NCBI GenBank assembly: GCA_020619395.1
Contig: GCA_020619395.1_4860.1
Source of the DNA: a phage
Direction: 5' to 3' (one strand)
Length of the DNA: 64,000 nucleotides
Part shown: positions 5,674 through 56,145 of the stretch, piece after piece
How the letters are laid out: the number at the start of each line of letters is the position of its first letter
Numbering within the stretch: position 1 is the first letter of the stretch
Notes under the pieces: model-generated
Told to the model about the DNA's origin: nothing
What the model saw: the letters and a program-made list of their open reading frames with translations, nothing else
Database searches by the model: none
Position numbers and translations under genes: made by a program

Positions 5674-5696
5674 CTCACCTAGGTAATATATATCTG
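5674..5696. promoter_or_regulatory. conserved intergenic motif, copy A (CTCAC-ctag-GTAATATATATCTG)
   Basis: directly after stop of 5704..6291 gene. Confidence 0.4.
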
Positions 5697-5703
5697 AGAT
5701 ATT

Positions 5704-6291
5704 TTACAATGTGAAGGTTGTGTTAAGAATACGAAAACCCAATGCTCGCTTAGCGATTTGCATATTTGCAGGCGTGAAGTCCACCAGTTTGATTTGAACG
5801 ATCGATAAATCGTAAAGCTTGTGAAGCACTTCGATTTTGTGTCGCCAATCTGTTTTTTGGTGCAGCTCTATCGTCGTCGGTAACTCACCCAGTCTCGGCA
5901 ACTGCGCCCCAAGTAAACGATGATGGACTTTACCGTTTATAGTTGGGGTGCCTTCCGTGACCATCAGTCGCGCATCGATGTAGTTATTTCGCTTAGCGTA
6001 CTCCATAAAAGTTTTGACATTTATCTTTTCCTCGTATAGAATGCTGCGAAAGTATTCGTAAATGATGTGTCCTGCCTCCCTACCGCTTTCCGAGTCTGGA
6101 ATAACCTTATCGATGAAAATCGCAGAGACCACTTCGCTCCCACGCGAATGCATTGTAATGACCCTATCCCCGTGCTCTGCGGCAGTTAATAATCCACTCA
6201 CATCAAGCCCCACCGGAAACAAGCCACGACTACGCATTACGTGCAGGTCTTCTAACTTGTTCTCTTGCAGTCGTAAAATACGTTCTGTCAT
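5704..6291 (-). CDS. hypothetical protein (~196 aa)
   Basis: ORF track start at 6300 is GTG; ATG at 6291 (MTERILRL..) has RBS gaggtg. Confidence 0.55.
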   Translation of the reverse strand: MTERILRLQENKLEDLHVMRSRGLFPVGLDVSGLLTAAEHGDRVITMHSRGSEVVSAIFIDKVIPDSESGREAGHIIYEYFRSILYEEKINVKTFMEYAKRNNYIDARLMVTEGTPTINGKVHHRLLGAQLPRLGELPTTIELHQKTDWRHKIEVLHKLYDLSIVQIKLVDFTPANMQIAKRALGFRILNTTFTL

Positions 6292-6324
6292 ATACCACAC
6301 CTCAAATTAATTTGAGTTAAGTGT

Positions 6325-6365
6325 AAAAAATAAGAGGACTCCAGTAACCGCGAGGGTTACTGGAG
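6325..6365 (-). terminator. rho-independent terminator
   Basis: hairpin ctccagtaacc-gcgag-ggttactggag, T-run on minus strand. Confidence 0.7.
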
Positions 6366-6370
6366 ATAAA

Positions 6371-6898
6371 CTACACACTCAACGTTTCAATGAATTTGAT
6401 GCGCGCTGGGTGAAATGTGTGATAAACAGTTACTGGCGCGTGCGGGCCTTCGGCTGCGTGTATTGCGCCATCGTATCCGCTCAGCAACAGATGGTCATAT
6501 ATCGCACTACAGTTATACGCCACCGATGCCCATAGTGGTAACTTGTCAAACTCTTTAGGGTGTTGGTGGTAAACCTCCATCAAACCCTTTTCAGGATGAC
6601 TCTCTTGGATACGCTCCCACTCATTTGTTTCAATGAGCAAGTTCCCTTTCTTCTGTGCAACTGTCTGGTATTGATGCGGGGAAAGAATCTCGCGGAAATT
6701 ACCGATATCGACGAACGGGTCAGTAGGATCGTTGATAAATGGATTGGTGATTTCCAAAGAAACGTGGTTGATTAGCCAGCTGGGATTCGCTTTAACAATT
6801 TCAGCAGGGACATCGATGTCTTTATAGACAACTTGAGAACGTGAAAGGTTAGCCTCAACAAACGGCTTATCAGTAACAATATAACCTTCGAGTTTCAT
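6371..6898 (-). CDS. hypothetical protein (175 aa)
   Basis: long ORF, tightly packed with neighbours. Confidence 0.6.
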   Translation of the reverse strand: MKLEGYIVTDKPFVEANLSRSQVVYKDIDVPAEIVKANPSWLINHVSLEITNPFINDPTDPFVDIGNFREILSPHQYQTVAQKKGNLLIETNEWERIQESHPEKGLMEVYHQHPKEFDKLPLWASVAYNCSAIYDHLLLSGYDGAIHAAEGPHAPVTVYHTFHPARIKFIETLSV

Positions 6899-9472: not shown

Positions 9473-9790
9473 TTAGTATACAACCAGTACGATGCAGTCA
9501 TCGATAGCCAGATTCAGTAATGAGTAGTCGTTACTTAACCGCTGGTAACGCATCCCTTTTTCAAACTGACTTAATTGTTCAGTCGGCATGGCGTATACCG
9601 CGCTTTGCACTACTCCCGTAAACAGTTCGTCGTAGAACTGGTCTACTTCCCCGACTTTGTAAAAGCGCATTCTTTGATTGTTAGCAAAGACGCTGTCTAG
9701 CTTCCCGTTACTGGCTTTCTGTACCGCAGTAAAGGCACTGTCTGCATCATTACGCTCTAATGCACTTTTAATGGTTTGAAATAAAGACAT
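9473..9790 (-). CDS. hypothetical protein (105 aa)
   Basis: ORF. Confidence 0.5.
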   Translation of the reverse strand: MSLFQTIKSALERNDADSAFTAVQKASNGKLDSVFANNQRMRFYKVGEVDQFYDELFTGVVQSAVYAMPTEQLSQFEKGMRYQRLSNDYSLLNLAIDDCIVLVVY

Positions 9791-9975
9791 GGTACTGCAC
9801 TCCTCGTTAGGTTAAAAGTCAAGGTCAACTACAAAAACAAAAAGGATGTCGGTATCCTACGGATACCTCCGTCTATGTTCGCATCCAATACATAAACCCC
9901 CTTACCCCCGTACTCTCCTCGATTGTCAAACGATGAGATCGAAACGTAAAAAGTGTAGTATGAGAGGAGGGTGGT

Positions 9976-10908
9976 ATGAATAAATCTAAGTCAGGGTTGC
10001 ACATCTTCTCGATAGGTATCGTCGCGGAAGATAAACCTCGTGGTGCCACTCGAGTTAAAGTCATCCCTATCGAAGTTAACTTTATTAATCCTACAGCTGT
10101 CGATGCAACAGAGACACCTGTAGAGAAGCAACACAACAGTTTAAGTGGTACTGACAACCTTACTGTAAAGCAAGGTAATGCCATCACTGCAAAATGGATG
10201 AAGTCCAACAGCAACCGGGTTAACCCTCCGGATGTGAAAAAAGAAGACTACGTAAGAATCTGGCGTATCGGTGAAACCGATATGTACTTCTGGGAAGATT
10301 TAAACAACAGTAACGTTAAGCGACTGGAAGATGGGGTATACGCCTGGTCTGCTGACCCAGTAAACCAGATGGCCGATGACCTCTCTAACGCCTACGTACT
10401 GAATATCTCCCCGATGGATGGTCACGTTACTTTACGCACCAGTATGACTAACGGTGAGAAAAATGCGTATCTATTTCAATTGAACACGCGCGATGGGTTT
10501 TTCCAGTTAGTAGATGACGAAGGGCGTAAGTTCTACCTTAACTCCCCAGAGGATGACTTAGGGTTTGAAAACGCCTGCCGATCGAAGGTTAATATCAATA
10601 AAGAGGACGCTTTCATTTATGCTAAACGTTCTATTAATCTCGAGACAAAAACGATTAACGAGAAGTGCGAAACTCGCAACTCTGCAGCGTCGAAAAACAT
10701 GGCATGGACGACTGAAGACTGGAAGACCGATTGTCCAACGAATCTATTTACCGGTAACCTGGAAGTAGGTAAGGATTTCCTCTATAATGGCAAGGGTGAA
10801 GGTAAGGGTACATTCACAGTTACCGAATCGGTTATCGGTGGCATCACCTTTAGTCTTCACTTGCATACTGGCCATGGTCCGGGCAACGACACTAGCACAC
10901 CGCACTAA
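9976..10908 (+). CDS. hypothetical protein (310 aa)
   Basis: strong RBS gaggagg before ATG; divergent from upstream block. Confidence 0.6.
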   Translation: MNKSKSGLHIFSIGIVAEDKPRGATRVKVIPIEVNFINPTAVDATETPVEKQHNSLSGTDNLTVKQGNAITAKWMKSNSNRVNPPDVKKEDYVRIWRIGETDMYFWEDLNNSNVKRLEDGVYAWSADPVNQMADDLSNAYVLNISPMDGHVTLRTSMTNGEKNAYLFQLNTRDGFFQLVDDEGRKFYLNSPEDDLGFENACRSKVNINKEDAFIYAKRSINLETKTINEKCETRNSAASKNMAWTTEDWKTDCPTNLFTGNLEVGKDFLYNGKGEGKGTFTVTESVIGGITFSLHLHTGHGPGNDTSTPH

Positions 10909-11069
10909 TTTAATTACGTGTGAGCTGTATATTGTGACAATAAACCTCCTAACTGTAACGATAACCCAAATCGCTTGTACACGGTTAGCCACTTTTTTCG
11001 CACAAAAGCCGGTTTATTGTCAACTAATTTACGAGTCGGGGCAGTTAATATGCCTCGAAGTACAAGTAG

Positions 11070-11096
11070 TTGAACATTGGGTTCTTCTGCTATCAT
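11070..11096 (+). promoter_or_regulatory. candidate sigma70-type promoter (TTGAAC-15/16-TATCAT)
   Basis: only plausible -35/-10 pair in the 200 nt leader of the DUF1471-like gene; spacer suboptimal. Confidence 0.25.
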
Positions 11097-11116
11097 TTGT
11101 TAATGGAGATAAGTAA

Positions 11117-11326
11117 ATGAGCATTCGTGAAATCACCGCAGGCAGCGACGTTTCTGGTCTGGTAGAAGCAGGCACTGTTCAGGTTTCTGGACTGAGCACC
11201 GTTACCGAAGTTACCGAAGCGCTGGCTAAGAAAGCCGAAGCTGAAGGCGGCGTAGCATTTAAAGTTACCGCTTGTGGCGGCAACAACAAAATGTTCGGCA
11301 ACGCAATCTACTACGTAAACGCGTAA
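11117..11326 (+). CDS. DUF1471 (BhsA/YcfR/YdgH-like) domain protein without signal peptide (69 aa)
   Basis: C-terminal ..EALAKKAEAEGGVAFKVTACGGNNKMFGNAIYY resembles the BhsA family from memory; RBS ggag; codon usage like highly expressed enterobacterial genes. Confidence 0.5.
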   Translation: MSIREITAGSDVSGLVEAGTVQVSGLSTVTEVTEALAKKAEAEGGVAFKVTACGGNNKMFGNAIYYVNA

Positions 11327-11351
11327 TCGGCCTGCAGGCAAAAAAGATATA

Positions 11352-11397
11352 GGTACCCTACTCCCATTGGGAGTAGGGTTTACCTTTTATTTTTTTC
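11352..11397. terminator. bidirectional rho-independent terminator
   Basis: stem accctactccc / gggagtagggt (11355-11379), flanked by A-run upstream and T-run downstream. Confidence 0.75.
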
Positions 11398-12649
11398 TTG
11401 CTTTGTAGCGATGCATTTCAACAAACGGCTTACCCCAAGCCCCGAAAGGCCCGACGATTGCCTGCGCGTCGTTTACCAAATTCTGGTTATACCAACGCGC
11501 GTTCCCCAACAAAAAGTTTTCCCGGTCGAAGAATGTGGTATTAAAGACCCACTCCCCTTCTTCCCAGGTCGGCCAGTACCCTACACATTTACCAATACGG
11601 TTAAAGATAGGACCTAGCGTCTTCTTCCCATCTGGGTCAGTCGGGTCTTTTAAATAGAACCGGCCCCAGATAGCGTTGTGGCTTATTCCGTGAATCTCTT
11701 TTTCGAGATACGGGTTGTCTATCGTAAAGATAAACGAGGATTCGTGCGTCAGCAACGCTTTTAACGTTTCTGAGTTACGAATACGTTGAACGGACGTAGG
11801 CGTACTTAAATCACCTACACCGATGGCGTCCCAATCGTAATAGCGACGGGTTTCCAATACAATCTTCGCCACGCTAAGGTTTGGCAGACTCAGCATAATC
11901 GCACGGTCGCTGAAATAGCCCTGCGGTGGCAACCAATGCAGAATACCCCCGATGACGAACCCAACGGTTTTCCCTGTAATGGAATCGGGTAAGGTCAACA
12001 TTAACGAAGAATAGTAATCTCGCGTAGTATCGAGTTTGTTCATCGTTAAACCGGATATGGGGTAAGTCTTCACTTTACCAATATTCGCCATCACTAGACA
12101 GCCGATGTCGGGTGTGTTGGCTCTCCGCACGATGTTACCAGCGCCGGTTAAGCGAACACCCACTGGGTCAGATTGGTGCGGTACCCATTGACCGTTGATG
12201 TTGTACAGTACCCCAGTACGGTATTTCTCTTTCCACTCATCGTCGCAGACTACAACAACGTCGTGTGCATCATCAGGATTGAAGTCCTGAGTGTAGTGGT
12301 ACCCAGGAGGGCACAGGTGCGTTTCTACGGGCACATCTGCATTAATAGACTGGTAGTGTGCCTCAACGAATTCGAGCTTCGGTAAGCCCTTCCCAAGCGT
12401 TGGAATCGCGATTCCTGACTTGGTGTTTAACCAATCTTGCAACGTGTCCGTACGGTTTTGTAAATCAGCCAGGTGATACTGGCTATAGAAGGTATATTCA
12501 GCACCTAGTGCTTCTAGTCCTACTTCGAAAAAGTGGTAGTTAGCACAAAGGGTATTTAAGGGCTGCGTGACATCGATGGTTCCCCAAGTTCGGGTGTCTC
12601 GAGAGAAGCCAAAAGCGCTGTCGGCCCGCACTTGATAAGCAGTAGTCAC
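11387..12649 (-). CDS. hypothetical protein (420 aa), possibly structural
   Basis: long ORF divergent from the tail-fibre operon. Confidence 0.6.
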   Translation of the reverse strand: MTTAYQVRADSAFGFSRDTRTWGTIDVTQPLNTLCANYHFFEVGLEALGAEYTFYSQYHLADLQNRTDTLQDWLNTKSGIAIPTLGKGLPKLEFVEAHYQSINADVPVETHLCPPGYHYTQDFNPDDAHDVVVVCDDEWKEKYRTGVLYNINGQWVPHQSDPVGVRLTGAGNIVRRANTPDIGCLVMANIGKVKTYPISGLTMNKLDTTRDYYSSLMLTLPDSITGKTVGFVIGGILHWLPPQGYFSDRAIMLSLPNLSVAKIVLETRRYYDWDAIGVGDLSTPTSVQRIRNSETLKALLTHESSFIFTIDNPYLEKEIHGISHNAIWGRFYLKDPTDPDGKKTLGPIFNRIGKCVGYWPTWEEGEWVFNTTFFDRENFLLGNARWYNQNLVNDAQAIVGPFGAWGKPFVEMHRYKARKK

Positions 12650-12716
12650 TGGCTGTTTCCTCTAAGGATTCGGGTCATAGTATGAACTCGACGCCCTCAG
12701 AGAAAAGGAGTGTAAA

Positions 12717-15700
12717 ATGGCTGTCGTCCCTGACCCGCACTATCAAGAACCGGGGAATATGCAGACCGGTGAAGCGGTAACGCCGATCGGTACTAAGTAC
12801 CGGATGCTGTTCCCCGCACACGCCCCCTTTTATACCACATCCCTGGTGGTCAAGAGTGGCGGCAAGAAATTAACATTAGGTGATGATTACGTCATCACCC
12901 ATGCGTACGTTACGGGCATGGCCCGCACTGGCCATGTTTGTCACGGCGGCGTGTGGATTACCAACCCGAAATACCAGAGCGGCTTTACACTCGATTACCA
13001 TGCAATTGGTATCGGCGAAGCCACTGCAGAAATGATCGCCGCAGAACGAGAAGCGAATAAAGATCGCTATCCCGTAGACTGCCAATGGGATAACGTCATT
13101 GGGGATTTATATTTCCCACCGGTCGATATTAAGTTCGATTGGGAAAACTGGCGTGGCGAATCTGAGTTGATGGAAGCCATTGTTGCGGTTGGTGCTAAGC
13201 TCGGTGAAGCGATCAGTCGCGTTGACCCGATTGCTCGTAACACGTTAGACCTTCAATATCGCGCCGGCGTCACGCTTATCACATCCGAGCAGTATGCGAC
13301 GTACGACGGTACTGGCGGCTACACGTATAACGCGTCGCGTCGTCGTTATTCGTTATCTTACCAGAACACGACATTCGATGCGTATTCGTTAGCGGTAAAA
13401 CACCGTTTACCGAGCATTCCACCGGAAACAACGTTGAACCCAGGCGAGCTGATCGATTGGATGCTCTGTTACGCAAACGGCGGGACAAGTATCCTGCGTC
13501 TTCAGTTGAAGCAACGCGCGATTTATCTTACCTTAACGACAGCGATTGGTTCCGGTTCGTCTAATTACAGCTATACGTTAACTACTGGCCTGACCGATAC
13601 CGAGTTGGCGGGTGAGGTTGAGTTTAGCGTGGTCAGACGCGAAGGTAACGGCGTTTACGACATCACCGTTAAAACAAGCAAGCAAACCGTTAACTACAGC
13701 TTTAACGTTGACAACCCACCGAGCGAATTTGCACCAGGGTATCAGAAAACTGATGTCGCAAAATGGTTGAAGTTTAAATCGGACGTCAACCTAAACTGGT
13801 GGGCAGGTGAGAACGATTACGTCCAGATTCGCTCATTACCTGGCGCACCGTCGCCTGACGTTAACAATGACGTGTACCAGCTGCTGGTAAAATATCACCA
13901 GATTGTCGATAAACTGTACCGTGATGCACCGGCACACACACACGTGCCGCGCAAGGATAACCCGCATCGCGATTCGTGGGGCGCAATCCGTGCTTTGGAG
14001 AATAACGGTATTGCTTCGGACGCGACGCTGGTATACGGAAAAACGCAACCGCAGCTGACAGATTACGTTAACAATCTGTTGCCGAAACTGTCAACGCTGG
14101 CGAATAAGCTTTTACGTTTACCGACGGCTGCACAGTCTATCAACGGCACGTTCGGCATGAAGCCTGGCCTGACTTCAATAACGTCAGCAGTGGGTACCGA
14201 TGAGTCTGAAGGCGTGGGTGCACAATTTACGGTTGACCCGAGGGTTATCCGTTTTATTGGACGCGATTCGCAAACCGTTAACGCCGGGAACAATCCGATT
14301 ACATGGCAAGGTGGGGCTAACCAACTCATCCTTTATCCGGATTCCCGTGGATTGGAGTTCAACGGTAAGAAATTGTTGGACCCTACTACGGTCGGGCCGT
14401 ACCTGCCGGGCAACGAGTCGGGTGGTGATGGACTATTTTACGGAACATCCACAGCTACTGTAACCATTAACGGTAACGGTATTCAGTCTGTTCCGTTCAT
14501 TTGTACTTTTGTTCCACCGGAGTCCGACGACCTTGGCCTGATGGCTGTCCGTTTGTTGGCTACTGAATTCGGTGATCGTGAGGACTTGGCCGCAACGCCG
14601 GCACTCATCAAGAAATTGGATCAGCAGTTTACGGGCAAGTTGGTTGCCGTTAAATCGTACATCAACGACATGCCACTGACGAGTTCTATTTACATCGATA
14701 AAACTAACTTCGGCTTATCGAACGTACAGAACGTCCCAGATGTACAATTGCCGATCTCCCCGCTCCAACAAGCTGAGCTGGACAAGTATGCATTCGTTGG
14801 TCACACACACACTCCTGCTGCGCTCGGGATTAAGCGTGCAACAACGACGGAGTTCGGTTTAGTACAGTTCGGCACCGCGGTTGATGATGCCACGCTGGCA
14901 TTAGACGGCGGTGAGGTCATCCGACAGGCGGACGCCATCACAGAGATAGAGAAGGTTGCGAAGACAGTCGACTCTGGTGCTTCAATCAATATTATTCGTT
15001 ACGGTTTACCCGGCACGGATATCATTGAAAACGGCATCACTTACACCGACTGGATGGTTACTATTAAAGCGAACGATTATTTCGTTGGTCGCGAGTACAA
15101 AGTACCTCTCTCCACATTTAACTTGGCTGAGCTATTCCCAGCGACGCACGAAGATGCTGAGTTTGGCGTGTATGTTGACGCGGCGGGCGATGATGGCAAG
15201 TACATTATCTACGAAAATCCAAACACGGCAGAAACTGAGACGATGACCAAAATAGGTTCCATCATCACCAGTGAAACCGGTGTGGTTTTTGTAGAAATCC
15301 GCAACGTAACGCGTTTAGGTGAGTTTCGTGAATTAGGCGAGCATGTCGAGGACGATAACGCCCATATTCGTCGGGGTATGTCGCAAGCTGAATTCGGATT
15401 TACTTACGGTACAGGCGGGCCTGTGTGGTCCACGGGCGCGCCGGGTACAAAACGTATAGATGCTGATTGGCGTTACGCGCAGGCTAGCAGCTATACGCCT
15501 ATGTTGAAAGCGGACTACGATCCGGCTGCTGATAAATGGACGTTTAAAACAACCAGTTTATCTGTAGCCGATTATCGTTTTGTCCACAACACATTCCCGA
15601 TGTTCCAGAATAACGGCATTACCGCAACGTGGACACCTTTAACCGCAACAGCGGACAGTGTGCTAGAAACGGTAATTGGGTGTTGTCATCACTCGGCCAC

Positions 15701-16430
15701 GTTCATGCACCGTATTTCTGTACTCGTCGCACGCACCGCAGGGCGTATCACCACTCCAGGCGGCGTGAGCACGTATGCGGGAATCGCGGTTAACTACGGA
15801 CGTGCTGCACAGGTTGTTATTGGCTTGAACGGCGTTACTGGTTCCGGCCATGACTGGACGGCACTTAACCCATCGGTGCGTTTCAGCCACACGCGAACAG
15901 CGGACGGTATTTCGTTCGAGGGAACGATTAACATCGATTCCAAAACGATCAACTTTGAGCTGACGCTAACCGCGACAACAAAGACGCTGAAATACACCTT
16001 GCAGTCGACCGGCGAGTCGTGGACTGAGGATTTGTCTACCCGTCTCCGTCCTGACTATATCGACTTGACGAAACTGATTACCGATCCGAGTACGCCGATT
16101 TATCACGGCGTGGGTGGTTTGTTTAGTTCCGACACAGAAGCGCGTTTGACTTACGCTAACCTGAACACGATGCCGACAAAGAATCGTTATTACGCCACGT
16201 TCCTTGACTATGCGATTAACTATTCCGGCTTAAACCGCGCAAGATTCTTTACTGGCGTGGTGGATGCAGGTTTAACGATTAATGAGATGAACAGCGCGAT
16301 GTGCAACTATTCATACAGTTCGTTCCGACCAGTGGATGCAGGTAAAATTCCACTGGTGGCACACCCATCCAAGATGATGACGTTCAATCCGAAAAACACG
16401 TCAGCTCGAACACTTATTATTCGTGATTAA
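12717..16430 (+). CDS. tail fibre protein 1 (1237 aa)
   Basis: RBS aaaaggag; shares N-terminal domain with next three genes; GHTHT..ATTTEFGLVQFG fibre-type repeat motifs. Confidence 0.65.
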   Translation: MAVVPDPHYQEPGNMQTGEAVTPIGTKYRMLFPAHAPFYTTSLVVKSGGKKLTLGDDYVITHAYVTGMARTGHVCHGGVWITNPKYQSGFTLDYHAIGIGEATAEMIAAEREANKDRYPVDCQWDNVIGDLYFPPVDIKFDWENWRGESELMEAIVAVGAKLGEAISRVDPIARNTLDLQYRAGVTLITSEQYATYDGTGGYTYNASRRRYSLSYQNTTFDAYSLAVKHRLPSIPPETTLNPGELIDWMLCYANGGTSILRLQLKQRAIYLTLTTAIGSGSSNYSYTLTTGLTDTELAGEVEFSVVRREGNGVYDITVKTSKQTVNYSFNVDNPPSEFAPGYQKTDVAKWLKFKSDVNLNWWAGENDYVQIRSLPGAPSPDVNNDVYQLLVKYHQIVDKLYRDAPAHTHVPRKDNPHRDSWGAIRALENNGIASDATLVYGKTQPQLTDYVNNLLPKLSTLANKLLRLPTAAQSINGTFGMKPGLTSITSAVGTDESEGVGAQFTVDPRVIRFIGRDSQTVNAGNNPITWQGGANQLILYPDSRGLEFNGKKLLDPTTVGPYLPGNESGGDGLFYGTSTATVTINGNGIQSVPFICTFVPPESDDLGLMAVRLLATEFGDREDLAATPALIKKLDQQFTGKLVAVKSYINDMPLTSSIYIDKTNFGLSNVQNVPDVQLPISPLQQAELDKYAFVGHTHTPAALGIKRATTTEFGLVQFGTAVDDATLALDGGEVIRQADAITEIEKVAKTVDSGASINIIRYGLPGTDIIENGITYTDWMVTIKANDYFVGREYKVPLSTFNLAELFPATHEDAEFGVYVDAAGDDGKYIIYENPNTAETETMTKIGSIITSETGVVFVEIRNVTRLGEFRELGEHVEDDNAHIRRGMSQAEFGFTYGTGGPVWSTGAPGTKRIDADWRYAQASSYTPMLKADYDPAADKWTFKTTSLSVADYRFVHNTFPMFQNNGITATWTPLTATADSVLETVIGCCHHSATFMHRISVLVARTAGRITTPGGVSTYAGIAVNYGRAAQVVIGLNGVTGSGHDWTALNPSVRFSHTRTADGISFEGTINIDSKTINFELTLTATTKTLKYTLQSTGESWTEDLSTRLRPDYIDLTKLITDPSTPIYHGVGGLFSSDTEARLTYANLNTMPTKNRYYATFLDYAINYSGLNRARFFTGVVDAGLTINEMNSAMCNYSYSSFRPVDAGKIPLVAHPSKMMTFNPKNTSARTLIIRD

Positions 16431-16442
16431 GGAGATTTTTGA

Positions 16443-19400
16443 ATGAAAACGTATCCTTACGATCCTCGGGGTGTAAATCCCGAGTGTCACTTCATCGAGG
16501 AACGTATCATCGACTCCGACAATCCTAACGATCGGGTGGTGATGCTAGATCATCGCCCGTTTTTCGAAGGATTGGTGGTAAGGCTCGCCGGCTCGTCCAT
16601 ACCGCTTACCCGCGGGACGGACTATGAGCTGGAGTATGCTTTAACACCGTTGGACGACTCGGTGACGACCCCGGTGTTTTGCGGGGTGCATCTTATTAAC
16701 CCTAAACTGCGTGGTGCGGTGGTCTTTGAAGGCCAGATGCTCGGGGGTACGTTTTACAGTGGTTTGATTGAGATGTTGGATGAGCTAATTAAGGCACTCA
16801 ACAACCCAACGGCTGCAGATTGGCTGCTTTTAGGTAATCGACCTTCCCTGTACCCAGCCACCCCTGCAGCGGTAGCTTGGTCAGACATGCTGAATAAAAA
16901 GTATGTTGCCTCTGCAGTGCATGATGTGGAGTTAGATGCCGGGGCGGCCAACGAGCAGATTCGTGAAAAGCTTACTGAGCTGAAAGATGCGGTTTTGGGC
17001 TTAGGAACTGAAATCGCCACATTTAACTACCCCGGACACATTGCGTCCACTAACCCTCATGGGACTACCGCGGCGCAGGCCGGTGCGCATCCTGTCAACC
17101 TGAAAACGCCAGATACTTTCCTGGCGTATGGAAAGACGTTGCGTCAGTTAACCAGCGAGGTCCGTGCACTGGGTCTGCAACAATCGGATATCGACAAGTA
17201 CATTTCTAAATGGGTATCGAAAGAATCCAAAGGGGTGTTTAATGCGACGATATCCGGTACTCGTGCCCTGTTCCGTTCTCCTGCTGGTGAATCCGAAATT
17301 GTGTTCTCTGCTGAGGCATTCACTCTTAAATCTAATGGCTCTGTTGTGTTGGCGTGTGGGTATGCCGACACTACTGGAACCGCCCGGTTTATGGAGTGGA
17401 AAGCAGGCAACAATACATTACGTATTGAGTCGACTGGCAGTGCCTTGGGGATGGATAAGCTGACGCTTAATGGTACGACGTTACTGACCACAACTGCTCT
17501 CATGGGCTATCAACAAGACCCTGGTACCGGCGGTGGTACCGTTGACCCGGATGACAACAAACTGTACATTAGCGGGGTGAACGGCATTACTTTCACGGGT
17601 AAAGGGTCAAAAGCCGATCCCGTCACCGGGAAGGTCACAGCCAAACCCGCGACGACCTCTGAACCTGGCGTTGTGACGCTGACTGATAAGCCGAGCGATG
17701 TAGTCAAGGGACAAGCAGTCACCCCAGCTTCGCTCTTACCGTACGAGGGTGATCTGTCTTCGTACGTCAGGAAAACAACGCTGCTGAATAACCAGCCGAT
17801 GGACACTGGTAGCCGAACGCTAACGAAAAAGGATTTGGGTCTGGACTTGGCTGATAACACAGCTGACGTCGATAAACCACTTTCTGATGCGTTGGCAGAA
17901 GCAGTTACCGGTCTTAGTGATAAAGATCACCATCACAACTTCGCCGATTTACAGATCCCAACGGCTTCTCAAACAGTTCCCGGTATCGCTCGATATTCTA
18001 CCAACCTAAACGGCTTGTCGGATAATCGCGGCGTTACCCCGAACGTTCTGAACGATTTGTCAAAACGTTTAGACGTAGTTGCAGCTGCGCTAGCAAACGC
18101 GAAAGAGGATTCCGTGACCGATTTTGCCGCTGTGCGCGGTAAGACTTGGACTGTGGGATCTACACGTACCACCCTCGCCGTAACGGATTTGAATTATTTC
18201 TATCTGTTAAATGGTGCACGTAAAGAGGGGACGGTATCTGGTTCGATAGACTTGCAAACCACCCCGATGTTCCAGTGGTTCTCTCCAGATAACCGTATGG
18301 AAAGAACGTGGCAGAACGCGGTAATTAATACCGGTGCCGGTATTGATTTTAGTGGGTTTGAGGTTGCCGTCCCGGAAACGAACTACGGTGCGCAGATTGG
18401 GTTAACGACAACCGGAATGGGTGATTTGTCGGTCGTTAACCTCTTGGCGAAAACGTGGGTTCGTTGCGACTCTGGTAAGCTGCGGATTTGGGTTCGTGGC
18501 GGTGGTGCTGTTTCTGTTTATCTGGACGGTGAAATTATCGGTGCGGGTATTACAGAAGCGGGGTATCTGGAGGCGAAGGTCAAGGAGGGGTGGAAGCAAC
18601 ACTGCTTAGCATTCCGTGCCGAGTGTAACGATAGCGCTAAAGCAGCCGCAATTCGTTTCACAATTTACGACGGTGACTTTGCGGTTGGGGCCTCGGATAA
18701 AAACACCAAAGTTGCCCGCCTGCAGGAGTTTGTTAAGACGCCGAACGGTTTAAGGCATTACCTTTACGTGAACATGATAACCGATGCGTTATATTCGCGC
18801 GCCGAACCTATTGTGGACACGGAAGGTATTAACCTGGAACGTGGGTATATCGGCCACATTGATGTCCCTGACGCGGGATTGGTTGCAGGCACGACTTACG
18901 AGTTTGAAACGACGTTTGATTTTGGCATGGCGTCCGAACTTAAACGGCACTTCGAAACACGTCTAGCACACGGGGTGAGTAACACCGACTGGTCGTTGAC
19001 GGATAACCCGAAAATGCTGCCGTTGAATAAGGTTGATCCATTACCTAAACAATGGCTGTATGCGTATCCAACTAACCCGTCTGTTTCTGGGGATAACCTC
19101 GTTCGTTTAGATCGTGGGTTATTTGATTATAAATTCGTAAGTGCCACCTCGCTTAGGATTCTTCTTGCGGCGGTTGTTTCCACTGAAAACGCGTCCCCGT
19201 ATTGCTGGTTTACACCAAGCAACCCGAAAGAAAATGGTATGGCGACATTCGAGGGTTCGGTGGTAATCGACACTGATTATCCTGAAGTCCCAAAAACCTC
19301 GGACGTCGAAGTTTCATTAAACTTCATGACCCCTTCTGCTGATGGGAAAGGTAAAACCAGAGTCCTGCGGTGGAGTAACACCAAGACCAGTTTAAATTGT

Positions 19401-23600: not shown

Positions 23601-25852
23601 GACTTATCTGGTTGTCACAACCGCGTTCCCGTTTGGCAATTGAAGTTGAGTTTGATCCGAACACCACTTACTCAGGTAAGGCGGGGTATGGCCCAACTAA
23701 CAATCGTCGTGTAGTAGATTCTATCACGTATGAGAATCTGTCGCAGATGTGCCACATTGTTACACCGGCGTCGCCTGGTACAGAGTTAAACGGCTGGTAT
23801 TGCACAGGACCAGAAACATTCCCTTATCACAACGTTTCTGGCACTTTCACGATTCATGCCGATCGGTTGACGCTGTCACAAGCCGAATGGGATAAGATGA
23901 AGCAGATGATCATCGACGGTGCACCGGCTGGCGCTGCGAATGGTTATGCTTCGGAATTTATCCTTGCCGCAAATAACGCAGGAAAGGCATTGTTCTCCGT
24001 TTGGTTCATCGGCATTGGTACGGCCACACCGCTCACGTTAGCACAAGTAGCATGTACGCGTACTGTGAACAACGTTAACGTGTTGGATATCTACTACTTT
24101 ACACTGAAACCAACAATCAGCAACGGGCAGGTAACATTCCCCGCAGCGATATTGGCTTTGTTTGACTTCTATAACAACCTCGACTATGGCTTGAACTATG
24201 CTACGTTGGGTGAGATAACGGGAGGAAAAACACGCCGGCCGGGACAACCTACACTGGTGTCGGTAGATGGTACTCGGTTCGGGTTGTATCTTCCACACAC
24301 GTTAACCTTGCGCCTGATTGGCGACTTGGGTGCGCTTAACTACGCTGTTGGTCTTACGCTGTCTAATGGTACTTGGACGCGTTCTTCTGCTCCACACGGC
24401 GTTGGACGTATGGCACCGGCACACACTCCAGTCAGTCCAGCTTATCTGGCCCATCGCGATCAAGTGATGCTACACAACTCATCTCTCGACTACGTCTACT
24501 GTGGTGGTATCGCAACGTCGTCGAGTGATTTTGTCGCGGCTCCTAATTTTAGTGGCCCGACTGAATCGGTTGTCATTGCTGGTGTGGAAACAGCTGAAGG
24601 TTGGCTGGTATATGTGACTGAGGAAGTTGACCTGCGTTTCGGCTCGAGCACTTATAAGCTGCCTACGTGGTATATTGACCTCAGCGCAGCATTTCCAACA
24701 AACCATCAGAACCGGACATTCTACCTGCACGCCAAGGTAGAAAATGGTACACCGAAGTACGTAATGGACGTGATTCAACATCCAGACACTGAAACGGAAC
24801 TCTATATCGGGTATGTTAAAACGGGCTCGTCGCGAGTCGTCGAGACTAACGTCGAACATGCTAAGCGATTAGGGGCGGTGAAACAACTGTTGGAACATGC
24901 GGCGGTTGAGAATAAGCATGATGTGGAGGTGGGAAGGGATGCAGCAACGGGCAGACTGGCACCATTGCGTAAAGAAGCGATGGGTCCTTTGTCGATCGAT
25001 GCTACGAAAGGCTATCTGGATAGTCAGTTGCTTTATACCGTATCCGACGCACAGCGTCGCGGTAAAGCGATGGTGTCCAAACGTTTCGAAGGCTTGAAAA
25101 CTTTGCCGGCGTTTACTCAGGCAAACAAGTCGGGGGCGTTTTGGAAACATCCTACAACAATTGCGACGGTAACGGCCGATGAGAACAGTGAAGCGACATC
25201 GTTGGGTATGGAGTGGGTAGGTATTCCAACGCCCGCTTTCGCTCCGACCTCAACAAACCTGATGGTGGTGGTGCAAAGTAAATTCGTCGTCCCAGGTACA
25301 CCGGGAGTAGAAACGACCTTTAATGTCCACGTTGCCCCATGGGAGGCGGTGGATGGCTTTTTCTACAACGTCGAGGCGGAAGGTACGGATGTTAACATTG
25401 ATGAAAATCCAGAAGTGTTATTGCCGTCACCACATACCGTGCACCACAAACAGCACTCTCTGCCAGCAGGCGTGCCGTGTACCTTTACATTTGTCGCGGC
25501 GGTAAGTTCTTCAGCGCTCGAAACAGCTAACCAGCATATTTGCTCTTGGCTTTTCACTGACGCTGGGGGACTACCAATCACCACCGATCTTTCGGATAGT
25601 AAGATTCAAATCTTACCACAGCCGGGAGAGACCAACGGCACACCAGTTGTTCTGAACAGTCGTAGCTACACGTTTACGAATGTGACAGGTGCAATCCCGG
25701 TTGTTACCACGGGCGCTCAGGGTTTATTCCCACCACCGATCGTGGCGTGGGATGGCGATGATCTTACGTTAACGATTGCGCACGATTGGGTGAACGAGAG
25801 GGGACGTCAACAGCCTGATGTTATCCAGGTCAATCTTATGTTCCGTACCTAA
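20669..25852 (+). CDS. tail fibre protein 3 (~1727 aa)
   Basis: ORF starts at 20624 but the ATG at 20669 has RBS aggag and lies after the terminator; THTHTIADL..TSVTGLAKLW and ATTTVQGLFAITN motifs. Confidence 0.7.
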   Translation: MPREDAAQFNGTLSTATYPNRYSTVIPVEAPFYRIGLTLTVTDKTTGTKRKLIEGLDYFLGHYFQELAEAENDAIYGSIMLLNATEVEYELLSVGRQYRIPASEIGKYLVKTDMKDPRNCDWSELMKYPPIISPIDPPKDLEEAILRDEIVKALEDIRLGILERAHELDEAFAEVTDLIYQNGKQVFDDEMYQHHLIKNAHGYTCGDIGALPVLGKAVDATKAFGRTLAELVTLMSTSGIQQKHVDMLLDNTLGDLLGRMRVLNNDAITFQTTSGHVISMKGEKFIITSTKPLVLKADQDNNEPGIATEFSAGLNTLWVHSGKAGDKWGAYDAGVLAPVYNSVYLVTPDMVKMYLTSVKILPANAYFKSSDTLKIYGSGKETNKVYMNAELPAATTTVQGLFAITNLSASAAASTAISQKAVTDLKNKLDGYVDDTYTVNGKGFVLDSNGQMHLTLTAADFGIEKMNNTGPLEKPVTNALRTVLSGKALTTHTHTIADLDNVPYASTSVTGLAKLWDAIDTTSDKMVTSRQGFLLEQKIDTLNDKIATLLPAWTVGGSSYGNNNFLPIPVQGNYEGYTKNQTWQKGLARYESGKVYSLRNGSNGNPPGDWAIYYAYADVSPSNTLENMQQTSVRYRPAGMSAYPGVNLVAIVITGTDAMICLGSDGAYYLVIFDGTIDHAKHHRVVKVVLGDYKNGNGAGTVTTAPWAPNASTDDLIVCNERVYLLRTVLTSGDYFVSMRSIALNELNPGGSNTFVADALTGGILTSGENVYLRQGQKRAASDALPAPVTQIYADALAKWNNAINFVHGPECNHAIGVDGLKFRVGLTPTVWFASSTGQTINFKQWTSSFVVDCSALTVTLEGADRFPIVADLTTVRYNSGAEIGIPSRKWGEGQANNKTFATSQDKYIVSQGHAGDRDLMPYVTITTLDDGVSWYEYLSCDYNFTARSFSAVMLNQGRGSIYELGMAYPLTLGANSRLIWLSQPRSRLAIEVEFDPNTTYSGKAGYGPTNNRRVVDSITYENLSQMCHIVTPASPGTELNGWYCTGPETFPYHNVSGTFTIHADRLTLSQAEWDKMKQMIIDGAPAGAANGYASEFILAANNAGKALFSVWFIGIGTATPLTLAQVACTRTVNNVNVLDIYYFTLKPTISNGQVTFPAAILALFDFYNNLDYGLNYATLGEITGGKTRRPGQPTLVSVDGTRFGLYLPHTLTLRLIGDLGALNYAVGLTLSNGTWTRSSAPHGVGRMAPAHTPVSPAYLAHRDQVMLHNSSLDYVYCGGIATSSSDFVAAPNFSGPTESVVIAGVETAEGWLVYVTEEVDLRFGSSTYKLPTWYIDLSAAFPTNHQNRTFYLHAKVENGTPKYVMDVIQHPDTETELYIGYVKTGSSRVVETNVEHAKRLGAVKQLLEHAAVENKHDVEVGRDAATGRLAPLRKEAMGPLSIDATKGYLDSQLLYTVSDAQRRGKAMVSKRFEGLKTLPAFTQANKSGAFWKHPTTIATVTADENSEATSLGMEWVGIPTPAFAPTSTNLMVVVQSKFVVPGTPGVETTFNVHVAPWEAVDGFFYNVEAEGTDVNIDENPEVLLPSPHTVHHKQHSLPAGVPCTFTFVAAVSSSALETANQHICSWLFTDAGGLPITTDLSDSKIQILPQPGETNGTPVVLNSRSYTFTNVTGAIPVVTTGAQGLFPPPIVAWDGDDLTLTIAHDWVNERGRQQPDVIQVNLMFRT

Positions 25853-54338: not shown

Positions 54339-55181
54339 TTATATCGGGAGATAGTGAAGGATGAGATTACCGGCGTAGTTGCTGTCCGCAGCTAGCTTGA
54401 TAATCGCCACACGCTGATAATCGGGGTTGTAACTATCGTTCGGTGTGACTGAAGTTATCCCCATAAATCGCGCACCTTGGAGTGCAATTTGTTCAGGTTG
54501 CGCAGTCGCCCCCGTCACATATGCAAACTTTAATGGCACCACTTCGTTCAGCAATTCAACATCCGCCGCGGTGATTGCGCGGTTGTAAGCCCAATCGGTA
54601 GTGAACTGTTTTTGCAGTTCAGTCCAATCGTAACCATACGCCACATACTCAGCCTGTGGTTTACTAGCAACCACGAACGGCGCGATAATTGCGCTGAGGT
54701 CAACATCCGTCACCACATCCGCCAAGTTCGGGAAGAACTTCGCAAAGCGTAAACGGAAACCACCTTGCCAGGCCAAGCAACCAGGCTTAATAGTCACATC
54801 GATTAACCAGCTTTCTCCCAAATCTTTTACTGACTGGTCAACGATATCGTCGGCAACTAAAGACAAGCCGTATTTCGCATTCAGAAACGGCAACAACTCA
54901 GAGAGTTTATTTACCGGGTCGGCAACGACTACCGGTATTACGTTCCTGAACAGAATTTCCATTTCGATACGGTCGTATTCGAGCGTAACGTTGCCTTTGT
55001 AGCCCTTGCCGTTCAACCCGTATAAGAGCACACGCGTATTCCGGTCAGCGCCAGGCGTTTGGACAGACTCAGGGAAGCCAGTTGCAACCTGCTCCCATGT
55101 GAGTGGATTGGCCGTTAATCCGTTCTGTCGGTTAATAGCATCTAACAACATCTCTTTCGAGGGCTTATCGTAAATAGACAC
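54339..55181 (-). CDS. family-D paralogue 6 (280 aa)
   Basis: GTG start with RBS aggaggg; C-terminal LILHYLPI. Confidence 0.6.
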   Translation of the reverse strand: MSIYDKPSKEMLLDAINRQNGLTANPLTWEQVATGFPESVQTPGADRNTRVLLYGLNGKGYKGNVTLEYDRIEMEILFRNVIPVVVADPVNKLSELLPFLNAKYGLSLVADDIVDQSVKDLGESWLIDVTIKPGCLAWQGGFRLRFAKFFPNLADVVTDVDLSAIIAPFVVASKPQAEYVAYGYDWTELQKQFTTDWAYNRAITAADVELLNEVVPLKFAYVTGATAQPEQIALQGARFMGITSVTPNDSYNPDYQRVAIIKLAADSNYAGNLILHYLPI

Positions 55182-55191
55182 CTATACCCTC

Positions 55192-55989
55192 CTAGTTGTT
55201 AAAGTGTAGGTTGAGGCTGCCCTGGAAGTTCGTACATTTATCGGTCAGTTGCACTGACACGACTTTCGCGAACGCCGTATTTGCTCCCGGCAAGTCTGCA
55301 GGTACGCCGTCGAATACGACAGTGGCACCACGCAGGTTATACGGGGATGGGGTATCTTCAGCTACCCAAATCTCAGGAACACATTTGTTGAGTTCGATTG
55401 CCAACGCCGTGTCATCTACCTCGATACCGACCGCTAAGAGGCTCAGGAAACGAGAGATGTGGCTACAATCGATGTCACGCGAATAGATATACGCCTGACC
55501 CAACTGGATGTCCTGGTGATCCGGGTACAGAAGACCGCTCAACTCTGTATTGGTTACTACTTCTGCCAGAGGTGTAGCAGGTTTCAGCTCGATGACCGCT
55601 TGACTTCGCCACTCGTGGGAAGTTTCAACAGCAACGACTGTGTGCGTCTGTCCATCAATGGGGTTATCTTCGATATCCTCAGGTAAGATAGACAGATTAA
55701 AACGCTCGTTAATCGCCGCGAGTAAGTCGTGCGTGGTTTGCACGTCCTCGTCTCCAAAGGCAACATCGCCTTTAAGGTAGTCCTCTAATGGACGACGATG
55801 GTAGTCCACAATCACTTGCGTACCTTCATCACCGCGCATCTTCGAGGTAAGGACTACCTCCGAATCACGACCGTCTACTGACACAACCTCCGGCAGTCCG
55901 ATATCAACATCGTCAAAGGTAAGCGGTGGGCTTATCTTATTCTCTTCGTTGATGAGTTTTAGCAGATTCTGTTTTGAAGTAAAAGACAT
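55192..55989 (-). CDS. family-D paralogue 7 (265 aa)
   Basis: first gene of the array; C-terminal LNLHFNN; weak RBS. Confidence 0.6.
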   Translation of the reverse strand: MSFTSKQNLLKLINEENKISPPLTFDDVDIGLPEVVSVDGRDSEVVLTSKMRGDEGTQVIVDYHRRPLEDYLKGDVAFGDEDVQTTHDLLAAINERFNLSILPEDIEDNPIDGQTHTVVAVETSHEWRSQAVIELKPATPLAEVVTNTELSGLLYPDHQDIQLGQAYIYSRDIDCSHISRFLSLLAVGIEVDDTALAIELNKCVPEIWVAEDTPSPYNLRGATVVFDGVPADLPGANTAFAKVVSVQLTDKCTNFQGSLNLHFNN

Positions 55990-56087
55990 CGCGTTAACTC
56001 GAGTTAAGGGATTATTGAGGTCGTAAGATTTTTAGACCCCCTGCCAGCATATTAAAAGCGTAGTGCGTACCAGAATCTGAACAAGAG

Positions 56088-56140
56088 CAAACAAAAAAAA
56101 AGAAAAGGAAACAAAAAAAGAAGGGGAGCCGAAGCTCCCT
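56088..56140 (-). terminator. rho-independent terminator with long T-rich tail
   Basis: stem gggagc-cgaa-gctccc 7 nt after stop of 56146..56577; ~35 nt T-rich tract on minus strand. Confidence 0.75.
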
Positions 56141-56145
56141 TTTCT

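Follow-up and report, generated by a model that had tools for sequence, protein, structure and literature searches.

We describe here a small phage gene that encodes a single domain of the DUF1471 family, a family of enterobacterial proteins that typically carry an N-terminal signal peptide and reside in the periplasm or the outer membrane (PMC4092069), in a form that is devoid of any signal peptide. The gene is located at 11117..11326 (+) in a 64,000-nucleotide stretch of phage DNA (NCBI GenBank assembly GCA_020619395.1, contig GCA_020619395.1_4860.1; hereinafter, the window) that shows 95-98% DNA identity to Salmonella phages 1252, SPFM and SPN3US and represents an SPN3US-like jumbo myovirus (Seoulvirus). 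The open reading frame (ORF) of 69 amino acids (aa) corresponds to SPN3US gene 172 (SPN3US_0172 / ACQ60_gp094), and the product is accordingly denoted gp172. This is a real, translated gene under purifying selection, the product of which consists of a single, signal-less DUF1471 domain with an RcsF-like fold, and its genomic position is invariant. The explanation that we favor for gp172 as a whole, and that we hold to be fairly probable, is that the protein would be synthesized in very large amounts from a transcription unit of its own and would function in the infected cell as a soluble, non-structural binder.

The original prediction, made from the sequence alone, had described the product as a BhsA-type DUF1471 protein that starts directly at the mature domain and is predicted to be cytoplasmic, and each of these points is supported by comparison with the known families. 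The Pfam model PF07338 (YdgH_BhsA-like) matches residues 16-66 of gp172 with E=3.3e-11 and 43.5 bits, vs a gathering score of 27, and the other phage gp172 variants score 50-68 bits; NCBIfam and PHROG models match as well. The NCBIfam models for McbA, BhsA, YbiJ, YhcN and YahO all align to gp172 from profile position ~29-39 on, that is, with the mature part only; in particular, the McbA and BhsA models (lengths 86 and 85) align from positions 29 and 34, respectively, to 84-85. However, the equivalog cutoffs of these models are missed, by gp172 itself (McbA, NF040473, 40.9 vs 110; BhsA, NF047859, 39.4 vs 90; YbiJ, NF007611, 29.6 vs 110; YahO, NF007400, 19.1 vs 90) and by the other phage variants, for which the BhsA or YahO model is the best at 46-60 bits vs a cutoff of 90 (maximum of 60.2 for BhsA). 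Because every equivalog cutoff is missed, gp172 is not an orthologue of any of the named DUF1471 subfamilies. It nevertheless shares with the enterobacterial BhsA/YcfR, McbA/YbiM, YahO, YbiJ and SrfN proteins the core pattern G-x-V-S...G-(A/G)-x-x-(F/Y)...G-x-N...G-x-A-x-x-Y, the alpha+beta fold, a domain of ~55-65 aa and the Enterobacterales hosts, and differs from them in being phage-encoded, in the lack of a Sec signal, in the exclusively acidic variants, in the predicted phage-polymerase-type promoter and in the capsid-level codon adaptation discussed below.

The AlphaFold2 model of gp172, built with eight phage homologues as input, has a pLDDT of 89.9, with strands at residues 15-26, 47-54 and 59-68 and a helix at residues 29-42, which is the arrangement expected from the DUF1471 structures that have been determined (a mixed alpha+beta fold in which an antiparallel sheet of three strands is combined with an N-terminal strand and a helix). 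The best PDB matches of this model are the DUF1471 domains of YdgH, SrfN, STM1478 and YahO, along with RcsF, at TM scores of 0.72-0.80; for the DUF1471 structures proper (4EVU, 2MA8, 2M2J, 2NOC and 2MA4) the scores are 0.72-0.78, and a sequence search of the PDB with gp172 also retrieves YahO (2MA4/2NOC), aligned on the mature part. RcsF, the outer-membrane lipoprotein that senses envelope stress in the Rcs system, matches the gp172 model with TM scores of 0.79-0.80 (2Y1B, 2L8Y); however, the sequence identity is only 10-11%, a sequence relationship was not detected, and gp172 has neither a lipobox nor redox-active disulfide bonds. The RcsF-like fold of DUF1471 domains, together with the absence of the RcsF redox-active disulfides from DUF1471 sequences, has been noted previously (PMC4092069). 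In the BFVD library of viral structures, the fold is present only in the gp172 family and in a paralogue from Wellington/Kwan-type phages (see below). Foldseek matches to a selenium-binding protein, dodecin and a Tad2-like protein were not significant and were not used as evidence. As a separate observation, residues 1-33 of gp172 (window 11117-11210) carry the pattern I-x-E-I-x-x-x-x-x-V-x-G-L-V-E-A-G-T-V-x-V-S-G, which shows a weak likeness to the repeats of giant RTX-type adhesins (2,764-2,848 aa, with 10-24 matched repeats; MpAFP region II, PDB 4P99); no single repeat match is significant, and the likeness probably reflects a shared beta-strand motif.

The absence of the signal peptide is a property of the entire phage family. 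None of the 20 distinct phage proteins has a hydrophobic N-terminal segment (maximum 10-aa Kyte-Doolittle hydropathy of 0.3-1.3; 1.24 in gp172 vs a mean of 2.27 in the bacterial homologues), compared with 56 of the 62 bacterial representatives that do, the exceptions resembling fragments or proteins with mis-called starts; in the 23 nearest genomic bacterial homologues, a classical signal peptide is present without exception. The N-termini of the phage proteins line up with the bacterial A-x-A cleavage site. The ATG of gp172 follows a Shine-Dalgarno sequence, GGAGA, at 11105-11109 and is directly abutted by an in-frame TAA (11114-11116), so an N-terminal extension is impossible. The possibility that a hidden upstream start adds a signal peptide was thus rejected, and the extensions seen in other loci are short and non-hydrophobic. 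Judged by its sequence, therefore, gp172 departs from the signal-peptide and periplasmic pattern that is usual for DUF1471. Since the protein starts at the very point where the signal peptides of its homologues are cleaved, it is predicted to be made in the cytoplasm and to remain there, unless released as part of the virion or upon lysis. All 20 phage variants are acidic, with a pI of 4.2-6.3.

Searches for relatives of gp172 showed a family that is confined to large phages at close range and to Enterobacterales beyond it. In a word-indexed search of 5.8 billion proteins, the relatives with at least 70% identity were all from phages, and when 1.84 billion representatives were searched exhaustively with a profile, 73 matches were obtained; the bacterial ones are mostly 75-92 aa long, with the domain at ~27-85, and the few short, signal-less ones come from other phage types. 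All 17 gp172 loci found in IMG/VR are on contigs of 107-248 kb, and in all 17 the homologue sits between gp173-like and gp171-like genes, even where the identity of the flanking genes to those of the window drops to 47-48%. When two other variants were used as tblastn queries, gp172 was detected in GenBank in about 60 jumbo phages that infect Erwinia, Salmonella, Cronobacter, Escherichia and Proteus. The position of gp172 between gp173 and gp171 is thus fixed across the SPN3US / phiEaH2 / CR5 / Machina / Wellington clade. In phiKZ, homologues of gp171 (ORF130) and gp173 (ORF164) are present, and a homologue of gp172 is not. The nearest bacterial relatives, at 35-54% identity over residues ~17-66, are all from Enterobacterales (Yersinia, Serratia, Citrobacter and others), and a blastn search of 5,426 E. 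coli genomes gave no nucleotide match to gp172. In a neighbor-joining tree, all phage proteins fall into one group which, taken together with the invariant synteny, makes a single ancient capture from an Enterobacterales lineage the parsimonious reading. The dN/dS ratio of 0.03-0.39 in 11 homologue pairs indicates purifying selection.

A second signal-less DUF1471 paralogue was observed in Wellington/Kwan-type Erwinia phages, directly 3' of the gp172 homologue (6242-6802 (+) in locus L009; also in L008 and L012). This protein of 186 aa combines an N-terminal PF07338 domain (29.7 bits) with a charged, probably disordered tail of ~120 aa. The same phages contain an extra ORF of ~52 aa (MDAKALHKARVDKLCKQLPHRTRRG...) between the spike gene and the spacer that follows it.

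The codon usage of gp172, which had been likened in the original prediction to that of highly expressed host genes, is indeed extreme. We calculated the codon adaptation index (CAI) with a table of relative weights derived from 30 E. coli K-12 genes for ribosomal proteins, EF-Tu/G and RpoA, the median CAI of these genes themselves being 0.68. The CAI of gp172 in the window is 0.738, vs a mean of 0.369 (standard deviation 0.084, maximum 0.626) for 76 ORFs of the window. With ordinary GC content (0.51) and GC3 (0.50), this signal reflects codon choice. When gp172 was recoded with the phage-average synonymous usage, the CAI was 0.423 +/- 0.051, and none of the 20,000 recodings reached 0.738 (P<5e-5); of the 67-codon segments inside long ORFs, 0.14% reach this value. 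The homologues in all 17 related loci have a CAI of 0.58-0.76, vs local means of 0.35-0.47, and the nearest bacterial DUF1471 genes have a median of 0.42. Given that synonymous sites are near saturation (dS of 0.4-1.3) and yet the CAI is high throughout, with ordinary values in bacteria, the codon bias is maintained by selection in the phages rather than inherited, a hallmark of very high expression. Among the 82 SPN3US genes that were scored (gp45-85, gp225-264 and gp172, which make up roughly one-third of the genome), gp172 with 0.719 ranks next to the major capsid protein gp75 (0.778) and gp53 (0.751), and above gp54 (0.714), the tail tube protein (0.658) and the sheath protein (0.555).

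For 26 virion genes of the window with published spectral counts, CAI correlates with log(SC/M) (r=0.65, p=3e-4), and the virion genes with the next-highest CAI, gp141, gp160 and gp143, encode the window's three most abundant virion proteins. Because CAI tracks protein abundance in this phage, gp172 is predicted to rank with the most heavily synthesized phage proteins in mid-to-late infection, and probably is made in very large amounts in the cell. The regression predicts an SC/M of ~21 for gp172, vs the observed 0.86, which is 4.8 residual standard deviations below the expectation.

The observed value comes from the study of Ali et al. (2017), in which gp172 was the smallest SPN3US virion protein (7 kDa), scarce and not found in the 47(am1) mutant; it was represented in wild-type particles by 4 unique peptides and 6 spectra, with 81% coverage. 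The peptides seen by mass spectrometry (MS) prove that gp172 is translated. A 2016 study, by contrast, did not find gp172 in any of its four particle preparations, whereas every tailed one contained gp167-171 and gp173. Hence, with these four preparations and the 47(am1) particles all lacking gp172, the virion association rests on one preparation, and in the published tables the protein is not reproducibly detected in purified SPN3US particles. We also considered the missing 'Head' flag of gp172 as a sign of tail location, and rejected this interpretation because the 2016 table shows the protein to be absent from all preparations.

The expression signals around gp172 are consistent with a separate unit. 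In phiKZ, late promoters consist of TATG, with the G at +1, and middle promoters carry AAanTTACc centered near -24, sometimes accompanied by TATG (PMC4666361). Upstream of gp172, at 11025..11052 (+), we identified a predicted promoter of this middle/late type, P2, with TAATTTACG at 11025-11033 and TATG at 11049-11052 (TTTAC-N16-TATG), such that transcription is predicted to start at G11052. In a four-phage alignment (window, SPN3US, Caitlin and pEa_SNUABM_29), TTTAC and TATGC are invariant, in the midst of a spacer that can hardly be aligned; a TATG is located 47-65 nucleotides (nt) before the gp172 ATG in each of the 17 related loci, 10 of which also have a TTAC ahead of this TATG. The arrangement TTAC-N15-17-TATG is also found upstream of SPN3US gp160, gp65, gp76 and gp235. 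A sigma-70 promoter for gp172 was rejected, as no sigma-70-like promoter was found in 9700-12900, vs 4.2 expected; such an absence fits a phiKZ-like phage, which relies on RNA polymerases of its own. The 200-nt leader that had been assigned to the gene is therefore to be replaced, in view of the conserved promoter motif, with a predicted 5' untranslated region (UTR) of 65 nt (11052..11116, +) that begins at G11052, and a second promoter-like unit lies farther upstream. The structure of this UTR is not unusual (z = -0.3), and a riboswitch or other known RNA in the leader was rejected, the Rfam search having produced only hairpin noise.

Downstream, the convergent genes gp172 (+) and gp171 (-) share a terminator region at 11340..11396, which comprises an A6 run (11340-11345), a GC-rich hairpin of 11 bp, 7 of them GC (11355-11379), and a T-rich tail (11380-11396). 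The hairpin with the T-run was called as a plus-strand terminator, which agrees with the strong terminator of the original prediction; the bidirectionality that had been ascribed to it is only plausible, given that the scan did not call a minus-strand terminator, the T-run of that strand (A6 on the plus strand) beginning 9 nt past the stem. With an A-run before it and a T-run after it, the hairpin could also terminate the convergent gp171 transcript. Each of the 17 loci has a downstream hairpin, the stem sequence of which varies, and 14 of them show the full succession of A-run, hairpin and T-run.

A different promoter class was encountered in the same genomes. Upstream of SPN3US gp55 and gp66, there is an AT-rich motif, TATATATTAC, which is early-type in appearance, unlike the gp172 promoter. 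The 23-nt AT-rich motif TCAGATATATATTAC[C/T]TAGGTGA occurs in the window at 5675-5697 (-) and 57376-57398 (-), with 0 occurrences expected by chance, and also upstream of SPN3US gp55 and gp66 (~16425-16447 and ~25547-25569), both of which are high-CAI genes; the motif is probably that of the early promoters of the phage, the class served by the virion RNA polymerase.

The favored explanation combines these observations as follows. gp172 would be an insulated, monocistronic unit in which an upstream terminator, present in the relatives, would separate it from gp173, and in which a phage RNA polymerase would initiate at the phiKZ middle/late-type promoter at G11052 and transcribe the 65-nt UTR with a good Shine-Dalgarno sequence and then gp172, up to the strong hairpin terminator. 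With a CAI of 0.72-0.74, equal to the values of the three virion proteins of highest abundance, synthesis during mid-to-late infection would be very high. Because gp172 is nearly absent from purified particles, the main pool of the protein would be soluble and non-structural, and it most likely would work stoichiometrically, as a high-copy binder rather than an enzyme. Tentatively, and with considerably less confidence, we suggest that gp172 could be an accessory or chaperone-like factor for the neighboring baseplate and fiber proteins gp168-171 and gp173, traces of which co-purify with virions.

Several considerations weigh against this interpretation. Both the high expression and the position of the transcription start are drawn from codon bias and motif conservation, and the TTTAC-N-TATG pattern is only weakly enriched across the window (8 matches vs 3.4 expected). 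The phage monophyly that underlies the single-capture scenario has a bootstrap support of only 39%, with 58 alignment columns. The weak virion signal is compatible with a structural or loosely bound gp172; Ali et al. (2017) caution that the low-mass region of the gel might have been lost, and a 7-kDa protein can vanish from gels. As regards the chaperone idea, DUF1471 is not a known chaperone fold. Finally, the invariant synteny may just be a consequence of how stably the tail module is organized.

The alternatives to the favored explanation differ in whether the protein belongs to the virion. gp172 might be a low-copy component of the baseplate that caps the spike gp173 or pairs with it and rides the spike through the outer membrane, whereby a periplasmic-type domain would be delivered without a signal peptide. 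Such a role would explain the absence of the signal, and it agrees with the constant location of the gene beside the spike gene and with the single detection in CsCl-purified virions, at an SC/M similar to those of other baseplate proteins; moreover, in phiKZ, the small gene by the spike gene encodes the monomeric tip gp163.1, which is thought to dissociate in the periplasm. However, gp173 carries a C-terminal domain of its own, of ~90 aa and with an HLHTGH sequence, that looks like a Mu-like spike apex, so that a separate tip protein seemingly is not needed, and the alpha+beta DUF1471 fold is not PAAR-like, nor is there a PAAR match in Pfam; the candidacy of gp172 for the spike tip is weakened accordingly. 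Furthermore, capsid-level CAI and a private promoter and terminator would be unexpected for a protein present in 1-6 copies, and gp172 went undetected in the four tailed or tailless preparations where gp173 was detected. We therefore regard a place in the spike complex as quite unlikely. Almost equally doubtful appears to be a high-copy, weakly bound decoration or adhesin on the tail, fibers or capsid that binds host polysaccharide or lipopolysaccharide and is stripped in CsCl or lost from gels. The high CAI would befit a high-copy virion protein, DUF1471 domains are envelope-associated, with SrfN binding sulfated polysaccharides, the caveat on the low-molecular-weight gel region applies, and the capsid hexamers of SPN3US show a central protrusion without an assigned protein. 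Yet small virion proteins of 10-13 kDa (gp242, gp97 and gp74) were detected reproducibly and gp172 was not, and six spectra are 1-2 orders of magnitude below the expectation for 260-1500 copies. The specific version of this idea, a Hoc-like decoration of the hexamer center, was rejected given that, in phiKZ, the center is a six-helix bundle that the capsid protein itself builds with its C-terminal arms and requires no extra protein.

Other alternatives place gp172 in the cytoplasm. It could be an abundant decoy or sponge, employed in anti-defense or host takeover, that titrates a host factor or small ligand recognizing the DUF1471/RcsF fold, its location in the tail module being incidental. 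A small, acidic and, by prediction, very abundant protein would suit this role, the host range of the phage clade coincides with the Enterobacterales-only distribution of DUF1471, and remote fold neighbors include binders of small ligands, such as the selenium-binding protein and dodecin; nevertheless, the gp172 promoter differs from the early-type one that precedes gp55 and gp66, the fold matches to ligand binders and to the Tad2-like protein are not significant, and no ligand-binding motif was identified in gp172, so we give this idea little credence. A more specific conjecture, still a long shot, is that gp172 is a mass-produced soluble mimic of the host envelope proteins with the DUF1471/RcsF fold, a stoichiometric decoy for an Enterobacterales-specific partner, and that, as a separate matter, the spacer between the spike gene and gp172 encodes a conserved phage small RNA of 90-190 nt. 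If so, the partner might be a component of envelope stress response or defense, or else a surface or cell-wall ligand that gp172 encounters on the tail or upon lysis; the phage then would manipulate envelope signaling or receptor availability, and gp172 would provide the first direct handle on binding by DUF1471. By contrast, the idea of a recent host-derived moron whose codon usage was inherited from a highly expressed donor gene can be considered refuted. Host-like codon usage and the host-restricted family speak for it, and of the moron proposal in the original prediction, the origin from Enterobacterales stands; however, E. coli genomes show no nucleotide match, identity to bacterial proteins is at most 54% and limited to the domain, the median CAI of the bacterial genes is 0.42, and high CAI persists in all lineages, despite a dS of 0.4-1.3 between them, along with invariant synteny across deeply diverged phages. 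Rather than a recent import with unameliorated codons, gp172 is an ancient, fixed gene.

Among known phage systems, morons are independent promoter-gene-terminator units inserted between conserved genes, such as bor and lom of lambda or gene 15 of HK97. gp172 resembles these in its small size, bacterial ancestry, own predicted promoter and terminator between conserved structural genes, and absence from phiKZ, but differs in belonging to a strictly lytic, nucleus-forming phage, in having a promoter of the phage-RNA-polymerase rather than the sigma-70 type, and in being ancient, clade-fixed and codon-optimized to the level of the capsid protein. Like the monomeric spike tips gp163.1 of phiKZ and gp5.4 of T4, gp172 is small, is encoded beside the spike gene and gives a low, inconsistent virion signal; unlike those, it does not have a PAAR-like fold, and its expression signals and codon bias point to a very high copy number. 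The small protein gp57A of T4 is a non-virion chaperone of tail and fiber assembly; by analogy, gp172 is small, acidic, non-structural or present in virions in trace amounts, and linked to tail and fiber genes, but there is no sequence or fold similarity between the two, and we know of no chaperone role for DUF1471.

Part of this is on record already, namely, the DUF1471/BhsA similarity in database entries (the RefSeq label of SPN3US gp172 is 'DUF1471 domain-containing protein', and several GenBank jumbo-phage records label the homologue 'putative multiple stress resistance protein BhsA' or 'DUF1471 domain containing protein'), the protein family PHROG 8068 and the detection by MS. A literature search for BhsA or DUF1471 in jumbo phages and for gp172 found, in the library searched, no paper discussing gp172. 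As far as we could find, the clade-wide loss of the signal peptide, the capsid-level CAI, the insulated unit, the mismatch between the predicted abundance and the amount in virions, and the promoter-like unit in the spacer are interpreted here for the first time. DUF1471 proteins (BhsA, McbA, YahO, SrfN, YdgH and others) count among the small enterobacterial proteins that are most strongly induced by stress. The inferred capsid-level expression of a signal-less version, under purifying selection across a phage clade, argues for a strong, dose-dependent activity of the domain that could be studied outside the envelope. For jumbo-phage biology, gp172 is flagged as a probably very abundant protein in the genetically tractable SPN3US, and sequence-level predictions of promoters and terminators are gained for the clade, including a possible small RNA by the spike gene. 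More generally, abundant proteins from outside the virion can be picked out by CAI when the index is calibrated on virion proteins of known copy number. Other non-virion genes with unusually high CAI are gp252 (0.67; SPN3US 29925-30413), gp66 (0.67; SPN3US 25486-25629) and the radical-SAM protein gene gp163 (0.54; window 30030-31358); these three are further candidates for abundant non-structural proteins.

The spacer between gp173 and the gp172 promoter contains a conserved arrangement of its own. It begins with a bipartite promoter-like motif, P1 (10914..10938, +; TTAC-N15-TGTGAC), with the predicted +1 at G10936. In all 13 diverse phages that were aligned, this motif occupies the first ~25 nt past the gp173 stop and conforms to the pattern [T/A][T/A]AC, exactly 15 nt, T[G/A]T[G/A][A/G]C, with a freely variable sequence between the two parts; in the window, the activity of P1 is uncertain because TGTG replaces the canonical TATG. 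Variable hairpins, a conserved CGCTTG and then the invariant GCCACTTTTTTC follow in the 13-phage alignment, the rest of the spacer being unalignable. The corresponding element in the window (10936..11023, +), a candidate small RNA or structured regulatory element, includes GCCACTTTTTTC at 10988-10999, its only occurrence in the window, and an 11-bp closing stem (10936-10946 with 11011-11021). In 11 of the 13 phages, the unit ends with a GC hairpin and T-run terminator, in which 5 of the 7 pairs show compensatory changes (RNAalifold); across the 17 related loci, such a terminator precedes the gp172 promoter in 16, the exception being the near-identical SPN3US locus, which lacks it as the window does. 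The hairpin and T-run upstream imply that, in the relatives, gp172 is insulated from gp173. RNAalifold applied to the whole spacer recovered only the terminator hairpin, with the upstream hairpins differing in register, and the element had no match in Rfam. The same arrangement is found at 5745-5945 in locus L007, 5735-5890 in L009 and 5770-5925 in L013. Altogether, this unit of 97-186 nt is a candidate for a small RNA or a structured regulatory element.

The upstream neighbor of gp172, gp173 (9976..10908, +), is the central baseplate spike (phrog_3216, baseplate assembly protein, E=1e-122) and a homologue of phiKZ ORF164, the spike in the phiKZ atlas; the non-coding gap between the two genes spans 208 nt (10909..11116). 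In tblastn searches, phiKZ-type spikes match only residues 6-222 of gp173, which also shows a weak match to the Pfam Phage_spike model. The C-terminal domain mentioned above (residues ~223-310, window 10640-10905) ends with FSLHLHTGHGPGNDTSTPH and shares 39% identity with part of the spike of a Mu-like prophage, which suggests that the spike is self-capped, with a possibly metal-binding apex, unlike that of phiKZ with its separate tip. The convergent neighbor, gp171 (11387..12649, -; phrog_3337), has been reported as an essential, tail-associated protein of SPN3US and is homologous to phiKZ ORF130, the outer baseplate connector and fiber-docking protein of the phiKZ atlas. An antisense ORF of 82 aa (11093..11341, -) was rejected as a true gene: it has no family match and is broken in four related lineages, and it is open because the sense strand avoids the TTA, CTA and TCA codons, that is, as an artefact of the codon bias. 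Far from gp172, the last ~1.5 kb of the window (62458-64000) gave no blastn match to the counterpart in SPN3US, gp124 ('tail-associated protein'), next to a segment (55000-62457) that is 96% identical; this pattern points to a tail or host-range gene that has undergone mosaic replacement.

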